NCBI RefSeq assembly: GCF_006345805.1
Contig: NC_043004.1
Location: forward strand, 11,284,001-11,348,000
Reading direction: 5' to 3'
Length of the DNA: 64,000 bases
Source of the DNA: Octopus sinensis
Taxonomy: Eukaryota
The notes beneath the pieces are model-generated. The model did no database searches, had not been told where the DNA came from, and was given only the letters and a program-made list of their open reading frames with translations. Both the position numbers and the translations under genes were made by a program. Numbering within the stretch: the stretch's first letter is position 1; each line of letters starts with the position of its first letter. Below, in pieces: positions 2,553-43,343 of this stretch.

Positions 2553-4012
2553 TTATTATTATTATCTTTATTATTATTATTGTTATTATTATTATTATTA
2601 TCGTCGTTATCGTCGTTGTTGTTGTTGTTGTTTTGTGTCATCGTAAAACGTAAATAAATTCGTTTCACCAAGTGTTTTATCAAGAGGAAAGGGAGAACAC
2701 GAGTTGACTTATCTTCTTGTGTTCTTAAACGTATATCAGAGAGAAAAAAATTAAAAAATATGGTTCACTACTTTTATCCACGAATTGAATCGATTGTAAC
2801 ATATATTAATAGACTAAGCAAACCGCAAACCTTGCCAGCATCAAACAGGTTACTGCATATTAAATAAAGGGACTGGCGGTACAACGTAACTTCATTAGAT
2901 ATTTATTATTAGTCTACAACAGAGTACACGATTTTGTTTGAAGCTGAATGCTGGCCTCTGTTAAAAAAAAAACAACAAAAAAAAAAACACAATTTCAGCG
3001 TCGCTTACAAATAAAGTACATATTTATCTTGACAGATTCTAGTCTTATTCTATCTTCTTCAGATATTAATATAGCTGAATATAATAAAATTTAATATAAT
3101 ATAACAGCGTATTAAATTATCATTTAGTATATTACATTACATTGAATTAATATGTGAAATGTCAATTACAAATTATAACCATGCATATATATGAAATTAT
3201 ATATGTATAAAAATATTATTATTTCTGTGTATATGTGAGTGTAATGCTTAAAAGAACATATACATATTAACAAATAAATATTTGTGTATGTGTGTTTGTG
3301 TGTGAGTATGTTGACATGTGTGTATGTACGTGTGCGTGCGTATGTCTGTGCGTTTGTATGTGTGCATGTGAAATTGCTTATGAAGAAATGGGCTTACCAT
3401 TGCAGGCGAGTGCTGAAAGAAAAATGTGGTATGTATGTATATATGTATGTATGTATGTACGTATGTATGTATGTATGTATGTATGTGCGTGTGTGTGTGT
3501 ATGTATGTATGCTTGAGTGTATGTATATATGTTGTCGATAGGAATGAATCTATTTGTGTAAATATGCAAATACATATACAAACAATACATACAAATATAA
3601 TATATACATATACAAAAATGCAAGCGAAGAATTTCTGCTCTCCCCTTTCCACCAGCGTGGGTTAAAATCAGTAAACACTATGCTTTTTTCGGTAAAATCC
3701 AAGGCATTATATAGAGAGAGATGAATTATAATTTCAACAATTGAGGGTAAAATTAATTAATTAATCAATTCACCAAGTATTCAGTATGCAAAGGGACATT
3801 TAAGGCGAATTCAAATTATTACATTATATAAATGGGCTTAGTAAAATAAATTACTTTGCCGCATACTGAACTCATTAGAAATAGCAGCCAAAAAAAACTT
3901 TTCTAAAACTATTTCTAATACTTAAGAAAACCTCTCTCATATAGTGTTTGCTCAATTCAACTCACGGAAGTATGGGGGTAGAGACATTAAAAAATCAAAT
4001 GCAAAGGTTATT

Positions 4013-4065
4013 TGAGAACGTACGTTTCAAGATTAGTCGAAACCGACATTTCTATCATCAGCTCA
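4013..4065 (-). ncRNA. Type I hammerhead ribozyme motif (C3-G8 core)
   Basis: Minus strand: UGAG-CUGAUGA-[stem II with GUCG/CGAC]-GAAAC-GUAC-GUU-CUCA. Stem I is UGAG/CUCA; stem III is the palindrome ACGUACGU. Confidence 0.75.
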
Positions 4066-4698
4066 GAACTCCCTGGTTTGGATTTGAAAACACTGAAAGT
4101 GGGAGCATACCCTTTCGGCTTCTTCTCGCTTCTGAAGATCTGCTCGACACTAACAGTACCAACAAACTCAAAACTGCAAGCGAAGAATTTCTGCTCTCCC
4201 CTTTCCACCAGCGTGGGTTAAAATCAGTAAACACTATGCTTTTTTCGGTAAAATCCAAGGCATTATATAGAGAGAGATGAATTATAATTTCAACAATTGA
4301 GGGTAAAATTAATTAATTAATCAATTTCACCAAGTATTCAGTATGCAAAGGGACCATTTAAGGCGAATTCAAATTATTACATTAATAAATGGGCTTAGTA
4401 AAATAAATTACTTTGCCGCATACTGAACTCATTAGAAATAGCAGCCAAAAAAAACTTTTCTAAAACTATTCTAATACTTAAAGAAAACTCTCTTCATATA
4501 GTGTTTGCCTCAATTCAACTCACGGAAGTATGGGGGTAGAGACATTAAAAAATCAAAGCAAAGGTTATTTGAGAAATTATTCGCTTGCATTTTTGAGTTT
4601 GTTGGCACTGTTAGTTTCGAGCAGATCTTCAGAAGCGAGAAGAAGCCGAAAGGGTATGCTCCCACTTTCAGTGTTTTCAAATCCAAACCAGGGAGTTC

Positions 4699-4751
4699 TG
4701 AGCTGATGATAGAAATGTCGAGTTTGACTAATCTTGAAACGTACGTTCTCA
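4699..4751 (+). ncRNA. Type I hammerhead ribozyme motif (C3-G8 core)
   Basis: TGAG CTGATGA TAGAAATGTCGAGTTTGACTAATCTT GAAAC GTAC GTT CTCA; predicted cleavage after GUU at 4747. Confidence 0.75.
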
Positions 4752-5255
4752 AATAACCTTTGCATTGATTTTTAATGTCTCTACCCATAACTTCCGTGAG
4801 TTGAATTGAGCAAACACTATATGAGAGAGGTTTTCTTTAAGTATTAGAAATAGTTTTAGAAAAGTTTTTTTGGCTGCTATTTCTAATGAGTTCAGTATGC
4901 GGCAAAGTAATTTATTTTACTAAGCCCTTTTATATAATGTAATAATTTGAATTCGCCTTAAATGGTCCCTTTGCATACTGAATACTTGGTGAAATTGATT
5001 AATTAATTAATTTTACCCTCAATTGTTGTTGAAATTATATTCATCTCTCTCTATATAATGCCTTGGATTTTACCGAAAAAAGCATAGTGTTTACTGATTT
5101 TAACCCACGCTGGTGGAAAGGGAGAGAGCAGAAATCTTCGCTTGCATTTTTGAGTTTGTTGGCACTGTTAGTGTCGAGCAGATCTTCAGAAGCGAGAAGA
5201 AGCCGAAAGGGTATGCTCCCACTTTCAGTGTTTTCAAATCAAAACCAGGGAGTTC

Positions 5256-5308
5256 TGAGCTGATGATAGAAATGTCGAGTTTGACTAATCTTGAAACGTA
5301 CGTTCTCA
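5256..5308 (+). ncRNA. Type I hammerhead ribozyme motif (C3-G8 core)
   Basis: Same motif as 4699-4751, 557 nt downstream; predicted cleavage after 5304. Confidence 0.75.
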
Positions 5309-6114
5309 AATAACCTTTGCATTTGATTTTTTAATGTCTCTCCCCCATACTTCCGTGAGTTGAATTGAGCAAACACTATATGAGAGAGGTTTTCTTTAAG
5401 TATTAGAAATAGTTTTAGAAAAGTTTTTTTTTTCGCTGCTATTTCTAATGAGTTCAGTATGCGGCAAAGTAATTATTTTACTAAGCCCTTTTATATAATG
5501 TAATAATTTATATATATATATATATATGTATATATAAACATACACATATATATATATATATATGGTATATATATACAGATATATATATGTGTATATGTAT
5601 GTGTATGTATATATATATGTGTGTGTGTGTGTTTATGTACGTACAAATATATTGACACATGGCATCATAAACGCTTCCATTATTTAACCTTGATATTTGG
5701 CTCTTTTTATGTCTCCGTATTTCAATTAATTCTGCGCCACATTTAACAGTATTTAAATTGACAGTTTTCTTTCTCCATCTCATTCCCATTCTCTTTTAAA
5801 AAGATCTTTTTCAGTAATTTTTCATTTTCTATTTCAACATTATCGGCTGTATCGATTAGGTTTGGCTCGTCGATATACGCGTGTGGATATGTTTGTACGC
5901 GTGTTTGTACGTGTGTGTTTGCGAGTTTGTTTCTGTGTATGTAGGTATATATATATATATATATTCGTGTGTTTGTCTATGCAAATATGTATACTGATAT
6001 AAACTTTACACGTATGACTGTATGTCTTTTTTATTTTCATACAGAGTTGTATAAATACATATAGTTATACAGTGTGACATGTGACCCGGCTTTTTGAGAG
6101 AGTGAATGAAGGAT

Positions 6115-12593: not shown

Positions 12594-12810
12594 TTAACCA
12601 CTATGGAAGATGCCCGTGTGTATATGGCATAGTGATTAAGAGCGCGGATACTAACCCCAAGATTCCGAGTTCGATTCCAAGCAGTGACCTGAATAACAAT
12701 AATAATAATAACATCGGGAAAATACCTTAGGAATGAGAATCCGGGTTCATAGTTCATCTAGGACACCTGATGAAGGCTGGAGAGTACATCAGCCGAAACT
12801 TTGTATTAAT
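12594..12810 (+). mobile_element. tRNA-head + hammerhead composite element
   Basis: Box A TGGCATAGTGATTAAG (12625), box B GAGTTCGATTCC (12667), then ACAC-CTGATGA-A-GGCTGG..TCAGCC-GAAAC-TTT-GTAT (12763-12806). Confidence 0.6.
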
Positions 12811-13656
12811 AAATTTGTGGTTTATACTAATTCGTTCAAAAATTCTCCTAAAGTAATCGAGTTTTTCGCTCAGCGTCGTGAGTTCGAGAGTTAGAGTAAT
12901 TAGCTTTCTCTCAAGAGCTTGGTGTGAAAATTTGCCATAAAGAATTTGTGAAGTGTGATCTTATTATTCCCCGAACATTTTATTATCATGCTTAACCATT
13001 CAATATGGCGACACAGAGTGTTGATATTTTCTTCAAGTTTTGTTTTCCATTTGCGGTGATTTCATTTAGTAATTTCATTACTATGTTTACTTCAGATTTT
13101 TCCTAGGTATTCTTTGATTGATAGCAGGTGTGTATATTAAGGTATTTATATTCCGGTAATTAGCGTCGCATGAATCCATGTGTTCCCCAGCGTCATCGTC
13201 GATAACTTTCATCATTAGAGCAGTTAGACATTTCATTCATCTTGTTGAAAATATCCTGTTTCTCAATGATAATTTCCAAAAGGTAAACAATTGAACTAAG
13301 CAATATCAATTTTTATCTAGCTACTTATTACACTTCAATCAAGCGTTCTTTTACACAAATAAGGAATGGCAATACCTAGGACATTTTTAAGGACCACGAA
13401 GACTCATAGGACAACAGACGGAAACTATACTAACTTGGCTGAGTACATGCTGTAGAGTGGACTCTGTTAAGGGTGCTCAATGACATAGCAGTGTTTTTTA
13501 AACCGTAAGATAGTTTGTCTATTACTAAAGTACATGAAAAATCGATGTTCAAAACCAATAACACAAACAAATAATCATGTTATAACAATCCTTAAATTTC
13601 CTACTAGCATCGCCACGAGAAACTACCGCCACCAATACTACCATCACCGATATCAC

Positions 13657-35331: not shown

Positions 35332-36964
35332 CAGTTGCGGCCAAAATGTTCAGAACGACATTGTTTTCGTCAGAAAAGTAGATATAAGTTTTTATCAAAG
35401 TTGTTTTAGTTTCAATAATTTTCACAGACAATAAACACAATATTAATTGTTATTGTCTGAGATTTTGGTGTAATTTGAGAGGATAATACAAAAGTTATGG
35501 ATGATTTAGGGATTTACCGCCAAACCCATGGGGGCCAAAATGATCAGAACGGTTGCTTTTACTCCGTGTTTTAGTATATTTAACCGGTGAACTGTAATGT
35601 TTTGAATTTGTGTACCTGACGGTTTTTTTACTAAACATTAGTAAGAATATCTGCAGTGTACTTTGTTAATATGATGCCACTTACTCCGTTACCAATTCGT
35701 CAGCAGATTATTAAGCTTCGAAAGAAGGATAATTTAAGTATTGGGTCTATTGCAAAGATTGTTAACAACTCAAAAAGTGTTGTTCACGGTATTCCTAAGG
35801 TCTTCGATGATTGTGGTTCATGTGAAGCAAGAAAGTCTACAGATAGGCCAAGAAAAACGACCAAGAGAGAAGATCGTGCTATGGTAAAGTTGGTTAAAAA
35901 GGACAGATTTAAAAGTGCTGCTGCTGTTTCTGGGGGAAATGAGCATTGTACTGAAGAAAACTTTATCTCGAAAAACTGTGTCTCGTCGTTTATTTGAACA
36001 TGACCTACAAGCAAGAGCACCTGCAGTGAAGCCACTGATCAGCTCCAAGAATAAAAAGTGTCGTCTTACCTTTGCAACCGAACATGTGTTGTGGTCTCAA
36101 GAAAAATGGCAAACGGTGCATTTCCGTGATGAATCTAAATTAATGTTATTTGGCTTAGATGGGAAAAGGTACGTTCGTCGAAAAGTAGGTGAAAAATTGT
36201 CGCCTAAATGCCTTAAGACTAGTGTTAAATTCGGTGGAGGAAGGAAGTGTCATGGTCTAGGGGGATGATATCTGGAGATGGTGTGGGCCCTTTGGTGCGA
36301 TTACATGGAAAAGTAAATGCAGGAGTTTATAAACAACTTGTAAAAGATCATGTTCTGCCTGTGCTGAGAAATTCAACTAAGCGACCACCCATATTCATGC
36401 AGGACAATGCTCCATGTCACAAGGCTAAGGTGGTCATGAACATTTTTAAGGCTGAAAAGATTATTGTTATGGATTGCCCTGCTCAAAGCCCAGATCTCAA
36501 TCCTATTGAAAATGTGTGGAATATTCTAGGAGAACGTTCGAAAGCCAGAAATCCTAAAACAACCGAGCAATTATGGAATGCCCTTCGGGAAGAATGGAAT
36601 ATCACCCAGCAAGAAATTGAAAATTTAATTTCCTCATGCAGTCGAAGATGTCAAAGTGTGATTGAAGCTACAGGGCTTCACACTAAATATCAAATAATTC
36701 CAGTATTCTCTGTCATTTTTGATTATTTTGTTATTTTTTTCAACTGTTCTGATCATTTTGGCCGCCATGGGTTTTGCAGTAAATCACTAAATCATCCATA
36801 ACTTTTGTATTATCCTCTCAAATTACACCAAAATCTCAGACAATAATAATTAATATCGTATTTATTGTCTGTGAAAATTATAAAATATAAAACAACTTTG
36901 ATAAAAACGTATACTTACTTTTCTGACGAAAACAATGTCGTTCTTAACATTTTGGGCGCAACTG
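35332..36964 (+). mobile_element. Tc1-family DNA transposon with long IR/DR-type TIRs (~220 bp)
   Basis: Ends CAGTTGCGGCCAAAATGTTCAGAAC / GTTCTTAACATTTTGGGCGCAACTG with TA flanks. GGCCAAAATGATCAGAAC is repeated at the inner end of each TIR. Confidence 0.95.
35671..36693 (+). pseudogene. Tc1 DD34E transposase, two frameshifts
   Basis: Three overlapping ORFs: HTH/RPRKTT.REDR; KPLIS...W..VHFRDESK; QDNAPCH-34 aa-NPIENVW...GLHTKY. The expected stop reads CAA. Confidence 0.93.
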
Positions 36965-41309: not shown

Positions 41310-42791
41310 CACTAAAGCAATACGTACAATATAGAAGACGAGCAAATGAAAGAGCCCAGATATAGTCGCCTGACTTTGTAGAAATAACAACCAACTCTTC
41401 ATCATAAGCTAGAATTACATTCATGGAAGTATAGTGCGCATTGGATAATATGGCCCTTCGTACACAGCTACCGAAAAAATGACTGGAAGGCCACAACTCG
41501 ACAGTCTGTATGAACTTCGGTTGATCTTTGGGTTAAAACAAGCAATAACAATAGAGAGAGCATTTAGGGCCTCACTCCTAAAAATATAAACCAAATATCT
41601 TTCAAATCACATCATAACGCCACGGAAATGTTTTGAAAGACGTTGTGCATAATGAGTGATTTGAAAGACATTGTGCACGTGTTCCTATGTCCGTAGCACA
41701 TATAAATAAAGGGGGCGGTCACGGCTGGAAGGTTTTCAATCACTGGTACGTTTGAACACAACTAAAATAGTAGTGGAGGCTGATGCGATTTGGTTGTGCA
41801 GGTGTAGTAGTAGTAGTAGTAGTAGTAGATGCGGAAGGGGAGAAGAAGAAGAAGAAAAAGAAGAAGAAGAAGATGAAGAAGAAGAAGAGGAATCCGATAC
41901 AGCTAGAATTCCAAAGCAAAGTGTTAAATAGCGTTAAATAAGCCCAGCAGGAGACATTCAGGTCAAATAACAGTAATATAATTCAATCTTGGCTGTCAAT
42001 CGAACAACGAGAAATGACTCGTGTCACACTGTTGAATTTTATGAATGCTGTCGATGAAATTGACCTAACGTGGAAGAAGACGATCGGGGAATCATAATAG
42101 GCACATCCCAGGGGGAGAGAGGGAAAGCGAGAGAGAGAGAGAGAGGGAGTGAGATAGCATTTAGGAGGCTTAATCTCCATCAATAGGCTATTCCCTTCAT
42201 GATCGAACACTGCGATCAAAACGCGAATTGTTCTCATACTGGTGAAACAAATGCAAGTAGCCGGTAAGGTTGAGCCATGACAAACAGTGTAAATTAAGGT
42301 GCCTCGCGTTACTCGTTCAAGGACACAACGTTCCCTAGCTGAAATTAATTACGTGGAAGTCAATGATGTTTTAGTATCTATACAGGCGGTGCCCCAGCAT
42401 GGACACAGACTGGAAATTAAAACAAAGAATATACAGGCGTGGCTGTGTGGTAAGAAGTTAGCCTCTCAACTATATGGTTCTGGGTTCATTCCCACAGCGT
42501 GGCATCTTGGGCAAGTGATTTCTACCGTGCAAAGGCCTTCTGAGTGGATCAGGTAGATAGAAACTGAAGGAATACCGTCGTATATAGTTAAAAATTACAG
42601 TATAATTAAAACCCGAAGATAGGTGTATAAACATGCAGGTGTATTAGTATGACGGTTGGGAAGGTGAGAAAGTCTTAAGTTTCGAGCCTACGCTCTTCAA
42701 AACAAAGGAACACACACATGCATATATACTTATCTATCTATCTATCTATTTATCTGTCTGTCTGTCTCTCTGTATATATATATATATATAT

Positions 42792-43343
<552 letters not shown>

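Follow-up and report, generated by a model that had tools for sequence, protein, structure and literature searches.

How does a non-coding repeat that carries its own ribozyme come to be inserted as two tandem arms pointing away from each other? This question is raised by an element found at positions 3614-5509 of a 64,000-nucleotide (nt) stretch of Octopus sinensis DNA (assembly GCF_006345805.1, contig NC_043004.1, positions 11,284,001 to 11,348,000), hereafter called the window, whose DNA is AT-rich and microsatellite-dense (33% GC over 4001-6000). The whole element is made of two divergent arms, whose 5' ends meet at the centre, between TA-rich flanks (Table 1). A sequence-only reading had labelled it a retrozyme. 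This label fits, as the units are tandem and non-coding, hold one type I hammerhead each, are highly self-paired and show compensatory changes. However, that reading missed that the insertion is inverted in the Penelope manner, the copy on the opposite strand being its second arm. The repeat is very probably a retrozyme without long terminal repeats (non-LTR) and of the Penelope-like element (PLE) type, and the balance of the evidence leans towards its insertion into (TA)n by PLE-type double priming on one RNA, mostly circular.

Both the return of retrozyme circles to the genome and the origin of the tandem, inverted and tailed insertions of PLEs are stated to be open questions in PMC7229834, PMC8557442 and PMC11167929 (statements on sources cited by identifier refer to those passages that were available). 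The octopus family offers thousands of insertions that are short, young and readable, whose ends obey an almost deterministic rule and which each carry a single haplotype. As the RNA is defined (557 nt), both start sites are mapped and a candidate for the binding domain is at hand, both problems become directly testable. If the proposed reading is true, the design of RNA-templated insertion tools could also draw on a polymerase able to copy a circular RNA while working from the two ends of a break; if it is wrong, an ordinary new retrozyme family remains.

Insertion footprint of the family

A genome-wide copy count, which the sequence-only reading had proposed, gave 3,270 exact matches to a 15-nt core motif over 2.72 Gb and 13,516 contigs, against 11 for the reversed control. 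The copies form short arrays dispersed on many contigs rather than long ones at few loci, so that satellite DNA was rejected.

For scoring, 112 loci were used: 39 best genome hits including the two insertions of the window, 33 loci taken in order of position, and 30 and 10 from further searches. Beforehand, the duplicates L064 and L037 were dropped and L061/L062 were merged. It should be noted that the sets of best hits favour long arrays. Unit positions are counted from the predicted cut.

Two divergent tandem arms, with 3' ends turned outward into (TA)n, occur at 87 of the 112 loci and at 19 of the 33 loci of the position-ordered sample. The outer ends lie at site A (unit 185-212) or at site B (unit 278-316) and are followed by (TA)n. 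Among the two-armed loci, 80 pair A with B, two carry B at both ends, one carries A at both ends and four have one odd end, at least two of these exceptions stemming from composite or cut-off loci (L313, L334). One-armed loci (n = 25) use both sites about equally (B 13, A 11, other 1), and independent choice would thus predict A+B at about half of the two-armed loci. The A+B pairing is also found in 18 of the 19 two-armed loci of the position-ordered sample; the tally obtained for a sister family called family 2 (28/29) was left unused as support because the query itself had the A+B shape.

At the centre of the 87 two-armed loci, the arms overlap by 1-6 nt in 49 cases, are joined bluntly in 10, are separated by 1-5 extra nt in 20 and show other arrangements in 8. 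Runs of at least 8 A or T letters border both ends at 67 of 101 loci. The arms reach up to 16 units, the longest measuring 8,938 nt, and 35 of the 52 arms of the position-ordered sample exceed one unit (mean arm 903 nt). The window locus departs from this pattern: the outer end of its left arm lies at unit ~404, which is atypical for the family, and this arm begins at the position of the hammerhead cut and overlaps the start of the right arm by 15-20 nt. The second insertion of the window, which lacks a hammerhead, has (TA)n on either side.

Two minor observations also concern the outer ends. At L031 (5569-5615), an odd outer end is followed by stuttered copies of the last bases mixed with (AT)n, which suggests repeated, telomerase-like re-priming. 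Furthermore, insertions are stacked in one another's (TA)n ends, and also beside the ends of autonomous PLEs (L046, L047, L059, L060, L093, L086).

Table 1. Coordinates, in the window, of the two insertions and of their parts.
Feature	Position	Strand	Description
TA-rich flank, left outer end	3569..3613		flank composition
Left arm	3614..4575	-	961 nt, one full unit plus 404 nt
Hammerhead of left arm, type I	4013..4065	-	predicted cut 4017/4016; loop II deviates from the other two
Head-to-head arm junction	4572..4575		4-nt overlap (microhomology)
Right arm	4572..5509	+	938 nt; starts at unit ~383, runs through one full unit, ends just beyond site A (unit ~201)
Hammerhead, type I	4699..4751	+	predicted GUU cut 4747/4748; pair table over sister families
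Monomer between predicted cuts	4748..5304	+	557 nt; spacing of hammerheads, fold of sister copy, circular fold
Conserved structured domain	4891..5017	+	10-bp stem 4891-4900/4973-4982 around site A, then hairpin 4988-5017
Site A motif UUUUAUAUAAU	4928..4938	+	unpaired in predicted fold; one of two fixed 3' ends of the family
Site B motifs GAAAUUAUA (5031-5039) and CUAUAUAAU (5051-5059)	5031..5059	+	other fixed 3' end, ~95-120 nt after A
Second plus-strand hammerhead	5256..5308	+	letter-identical to 4699-4751; predicted cut 5304/5305
(TA)n-rich flank, right outer end	5510..5618		likely target and primer
Second, short insertion of the same family	42790..43252		minus arm ends at site B, plus arm at site A

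Ribozyme, RNA fold and sister families

The two plus-strand hammerheads, described by the sequence-only reading as identical and 557 nt apart, are identical to the letter, and the third one, on the minus strand, is present and differs only in loop II. The cut positions that it gave (4748 and 5305) agree with core numbering, which places cleavage between GUU and C. The type I core comprises stem I UGAG/CUCA, the CUGAUGA and GAAA strands, an AAU/UAA internal loop and a palindromic stem III, ACGUACGU. Taken in isolation, the motif folds like shuffled sequences (z 0.9 to -0.6). Stem III has an energy of +2.4 kcal/mol as a hairpin versus -9.8 kcal/mol between two copies. This favours intermolecular pairing and agrees with the dimer model published for palindromic helix III (PMC4209133, PMC7229834).

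The pairing of two ribozymes through stem III, put forward by the sequence-only reading, is thus energetically sound and matches the published model, although the interpretation in which it stood is only partly supported. A transcript reading through from the flank had been expected to release a 557-nt RNA, but it would likely fold into a hairpin of ~930 bp that buries the ribozymes. One-armed loci, or transcripts initiated within an arm, would therefore be the more likely source of monomers.

Folded as a circle, the 557 unit has a minimum free energy of -148 kcal/mol versus -116±6 kcal/mol for shuffles, and all five units (5/5) lie 23-31 kcal/mol under the shuffle mean. Stem I forms in the predicted 557 circle, in which the ribozyme is accessible, and a sister copy of the monomer gives a fold z of -5.15. 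In the conserved structured domain, 92.5% of cells are paired and five pairs are compensated among 13 sequences from four families, these changes representing few independent events and one helix being only 76% paired. This domain is a predicted protein-recognition element, around which sites A and B form unpaired UAUA-type segments in the predicted fold.

Besides the 557-nt unit, related units of 545, 566 and 554 nt exist. The 566 family (78% identity) differs in that A-U replaces the U·U pair, stem III is longer and the triplet is GUA, and family 2 has G-C at the base of stem II, stem I UGUA/UACA and a GUA or GUC triplet. A similar internal loop is kept in the 545, 566 and family-2 motifs, and the sister families retain the ribozyme with stronger cores. 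Comparison of 21 core variants, each seen at least twice, reveals compensatory pairs among sister families. The first pair of stem I is G-C in 15 variants, A-U in 4 and G-U in 2; the second pair of stem III is always C-G (21/21); position 17 is U in 10, A in 10 and C in 1; and U·U opens stem II in 12. The hammerhead fold, a ribozyme predicted from sequence, is conserved across families, and its common form looks weakened.

The claim that the unit has no credible open frame holds: the two frames of 108-111 amino acids (aa) in the element have no Pfam match. An antisense ATG frame of 102 aa spans the ribozyme in the 557 subfamily (window 3945-4280 (+); L040 3553-3861 and sister copies), and 16 of 1000 shuffles contain a frame of at least 92 aa. 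This frame is missing from the 545, 566 and family-2 stretches tested and was rejected as a gene, being unconserved across sister families. As also claimed, copies differ little: substitutions amount to 0.9% inside arms and to 2.0% from one locus to another. In the window, copies appear to differ mostly by homopolymer indels resembling long-read errors.

The same family is also present in sequencing runs of three organisms from seven studies. In three such runs (X1, X5, X10), guessed to be RNA, contig depth shows a peak over the A-B segment (window 4922-5035), with the letters of the 566 family. As contigs carry no information on strand, RNA ends or circularity, these runs were counted neither in favour of the proposed reading nor as evidence against it. 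A third, very AT-rich element (L151, L154, L162, L164 and L176, around 1500) has the same ACGUACGU stem III and U·U pair, a GUA triplet and a (TA)n end; no reverse transcriptase (RT) was found linked to it at these five loci.

Template of the arms and rival explanations

The arms of one locus are much alike. When informative columns are compared, the divergence of copies is 3.1% inside one arm, 4.9% from one arm to the other and 29% from locus to locus (L064 excluded). Once five duplicate or composite loci are set aside, partner arms have an identical haplotype at 20 of 28 loci versus 31 of 811 non-partner pairs, and lie within one difference at 27 of 28 versus 80 of 811. As many as 31 haplotypes are found among 58 fully covered arms. 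In the same way, both arms belong to the same subfamily at 19 of 19 loci (10 and 9), with the limit that the subfamilies may have differed in their periods of activity. In ten cases, a variant is fixed throughout the copies of a locus and occurs in at most one other sampled locus; seven of these variants span both arms. This implies a bottleneck of one copy followed by amplification. A separate RNA for each arm, which the window taken by itself would suggest, was rejected in view of the between-arm divergence and the sharing of haplotypes.

The mechanism that we favour would run as follows. Weak hammerheads would cut multimeric transcripts inefficiently, probably as dimers, and the cut RNAs would be ligated into monomer and some multimer circles. 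A Penelope-like RT/GIY-YIG enzyme would bind the conserved stem domain and nick both strands of (TA)n. One target end is joined at site A and the other at site B, ~95-120 nt apart, as seen in the footprints. Each polymerase would circle the RNA by strand displacement and drop off near-randomly, leaving 0-16 homogeneous units per arm. The 3' ends of the cDNAs would then anneal via 1-6 nt and prime each other's second strand, which would produce the head-to-head centre visible in the footprints; extension from one end only would give a one-armed insertion.

A more complete version can be proposed tentatively. A Penelope-type dimer placed on one circle would assign one start site to each target end, both polymerases would roll round this circle and the cDNAs would then prime each other's second strand, so that tandem copies, inverted arms and a tail at one end would arise from one mechanism. 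Multimeric circles would have left arms with variants of period 2, 3 or 4 as their fossils, and the circle would stay closed owing to a weakened ribozyme (GUU, U·U), which would let the most amplified subfamilies succeed. Such periods are seen in a few arms: three in L329 (three variants, no singletons), four in L040 and two in L065, L322 and L345. Periodic pairs number 8 versus 2.2 expected (p = 0.018, post hoc, six composite loci excluded). They fit multimeric circles.

The inner ends also bear on the template. Only 3 of 199 lie within ~5 nt of the cut, against 3.9 expected, and the inner end of the window locus was therefore rejected as proof of cleavage in vivo. Inner ends are not quite uniform (Kolmogorov-Smirnov p = 0.03), and their dip just beyond B would be expected from steady drop-off. 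Their association with the fixed start sites is not significant (11/80 versus 6.9 expected, p = 0.08; 6 versus 5.6), nor is a collision of the B polymerase with site A. The junctions between units are letter-identical in 209 of 214 cases, with no scar at the cut, this tally leaning high because the search pattern required an intact upstream half.

A rather unlikely alternative keeps the same element and Penelope-type double priming, but takes as templates long linear read-through multimers in which the hammerheads stay mostly uncut. A few long homogeneous master arrays would be the source and circles, if any, would be by-products. At L070, the first- and second-ranked copies of both arms share 4-5 copy-specific variants in register, which implies a heterogeneous multimer as template, argues against a monomer circle and fits a linear multimer better; such sharing is confined to L070, and was rejected as a general property. 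The left arm of the window, starting at the cut and overlapping the start of the right arm, is also in line with a linear RNA, and uncleaved RNA is the main in vitro substrate of an anole PLE (PMC11167929). However, 31 locus-homogeneous haplotypes in 58 arms, for a mean arm of 903 nt, would need many long masters, inner ends do not pile up at the cut, and arrays cannot lengthen by linear copying alone.

It is improbable that the template was a cleaved linear monomer, tandem arms being built by repeated end-to-end template jumping of the RT. This would explain the homogeneity within loci equally well, and L334 shows one internal jump (unit 362 to unit 287), but this jump restarts near site B and not at the end of the monomer. 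The letter-perfect unit junctions, even with a tally that leans high, and the lack of excess of inner ends at the cut do not agree with jumping.

Spread or growth at the DNA level (unequal crossover, gene conversion, extrachromosomal DNA circles, fold-back), with the hammerhead as a passenger, is very improbable. Adjacent copies do share variants in runs, block duplication could yield periodic patterns, and local tandem expansion was proposed in 10.64898/2026.07.22.740005. However, the A+B rule, together with 3' ends fixed in (TA)n and 5' ends that are truncated, is a footprint of retrotransposition, and the ribozyme is conserved with compensatory changes across families at most 78% identical. 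Fold-back copying was itself rejected, as the arms are not nested in L231 and L242.

Finally, it is scarcely credible that the inverted tandem structure is an assembly artefact, in spite of many homopolymer indels, of loci duplicated on small contigs (L033/L037, L048/L064) and of a stretch spanned by no contig in the 4 of 19 runs examined, since at more than 100 loci the flanks are unique, the inner ends are unequal, the outer ends follow a biological rule and the haplotypes are private to the locus, and the family recurs in runs from seven studies. At single loci, the number of copies in an arm may still be incorrect.

Several points nevertheless weigh against double priming on one, mostly circular, RNA. 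Shared haplotypes could reflect two RNAs of one dominant source locus. Periodic variants can also arise by block duplication or mis-assembly, and their phases are inconsistent across arms. The window locus has the geometry expected if a linear RNA beginning at the cut had undergone L1-style twin priming. The GUU triplet and the U·U pair 10.1-11.1 closing stem II, which the sequence-only reading did not mention, are weak features of the core, and Rfam returned no hammerhead family at the gathering threshold nor at E<=5. Eight of nine Xenopus retrozyme dimers failed to cleave in vitro (10.64898/2026.07.22.740005), and the start sites of the anole PLE were used in vitro without strand preference (PMC11167929). 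Target-site duplications of retrozymes, when present, exceed 4 bp; the flanks of the repeat are both (TA)n and no usable empty site was found among 101 loci (one spurious match), so that (TA)n is unproven as pre-existing target. The unit was compared with 50 GIY-YIG loci (from 150 scored) and a profile of its 3' domain with 57 loci, which included these 50; neither is shared, barring separate neighbouring insertions, and the case for mobilisation by a PLE is thus made from the anatomy of insertions. Furthermore, the youngest autonomous family has a single 3' end at the 26 of 30 loci that pass the filter and only 2 of these 26 are inverted; since the reference sequence stopped at that 3' end, a longer tail would be missed. 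Lastly, the reading is drawn from genomic footprints, cleavage, the circle and strand-specific RNA being predicted.

Known relatives, candidate partner and neighbouring features

Like the metazoan non-LTR retrozymes (PMC7229834), the repeat consists of non-coding units in tandem, each holding a single type I hammerhead; the units are low in GC and highly self-paired, with a ribozyme accessible in the predicted circle. The axolotl HHR_Amex2 likewise has U·U at the base of helix II, with a palindromic helix III of 2 bp closed by a tetraloop, and its monomer cleaves weakly and its dimer better (PMC7229834). In contrast, the triplet predicted here is GUU, and the repeat is known from genome sequence whereas expression and circles were shown for those retrozymes. 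The unit sizes (557, 545, 566 and 554 nt) lie outside the ~170-400 nt of PMC7229834 and inside the 51-972 nt of 10.64898/2026.07.22.740005. Short dispersed two-armed insertions obeying the A+B rule are a feature of the repeat that the available passages of PMC7229834 do not describe.

The link between retrozymes and PLEs is not new. Copying of the circle into tandem cDNA by the RT of a PLE or of a long interspersed element (LINE) was proposed in PMC7229834, and non-LTR retrozymes were argued to be non-autonomous PLEs in 10.64898/2026.07.22.740005 on the basis of co-distribution and of homology with Xenopus pseudo-LTRs. The octopus data share with this work the co-occurrence of endonuclease-positive (EN+) PLEs, the hammerhead tandems and the proposed PLE machinery; no pseudo-LTR homology to an autonomous element was found for the repeat among the 57 loci compared, and its insertion anatomy points to PLEs.

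EN+ PLEs (Neptune, Nematis, Naiad) have inverted 5'-truncated arms, (TA)n targets and a tail of 30-40 bp often present at one end only (PMC8557442). For the anole Poseidon PAc, two internal RT start sites bound the tail, both strands are extended, a dimer is predicted and cleavage is not needed (PMC11167929). The repeat resembles these elements in having an inverted arm truncated on its 5' side, partial tandems, a tail at one end and targets that are (TA)n or AT-rich, and resembles PAc in having two start sites downstream of the hammerhead with both strands extended. Unlike EN+ PLEs, it has no open frame, a tail of ~95-120 nt rather than 30-40 and tandem arms of many units. Moreover, one start site per target end is used at 80 of 87 two-armed loci, while PAc shows no strand difference in vitro.

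In L1 twin priming, the landing point of the second primer coincides with the end of the first cDNA, and the tail is poly(A). As for L1, two target ends would be primed on one RNA, with head-to-head arms joined by microhomology; unlike L1, both primers of the repeat lie at fixed sites, to which inner ends are not significantly linked. Twin priming of the L1 type was rejected for the family as a whole, since its geometry fits the window locus only and is not significant across the family.

In the literature consulted, no report of a cephalopod retrozyme was found, although the unopened supplements of PMC7229834 and PMC4209133 could list the family, and neither a rule of one site per end nor a genomic footprint of circle-templated double priming was met. 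The word "ribozyme" was not found in the available passages of an octopus repeat annotation (PMC13282606), and those of PMC7761336 and PMC10886601 added nothing relevant.

Candidate partners exist in the genome, where GIY-YIG matches gave 5,029 candidates, of which 150 were scored. Frames of 775-781 aa combine RVT_1 (below the Pfam cut-off) and GIY-YIG with a CxxC-type linker. Young RT and GIY-YIG PLE families are present, with (TA)n ends, hammerheads whose stem III is palindromic and 3' ends 99-100% identical among copies; one autonomous family carries U·U besides such a stem III. A walk upstream of family 2 led to no autonomous partner, only to another tandem unit, and two variant-pattern searches led only to further non-coding families. 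In the young autonomous PLE (L105 3800-4975; L093 2350-2460), a U3-A8-variant hammerhead lies ~85 nt before the 3' end, after CCAAT/TGACGTC-rich repeats and a TATA-like box.

Two other features of the window deserve mention. At 12611-12830 (+), a tRNA-like head, in which ARAGORN detected no tRNA, is followed by an (AAT)n linker and a hammerhead-like motif (CTGATGA, GGCTG/CAGCC stem, GAAA). This repeat has 15 matches in the window and 1.9 Mb of further DNA, with an inverted pair in L187, and is possibly a hammerhead-bearing short interspersed element (SINE) moved by a PLE. Remnants of a Tc1/mariner transposase, with HTH_Tnp_Tc3_2 and DDE_3 in two frames, lie at 35888-36801 (+).

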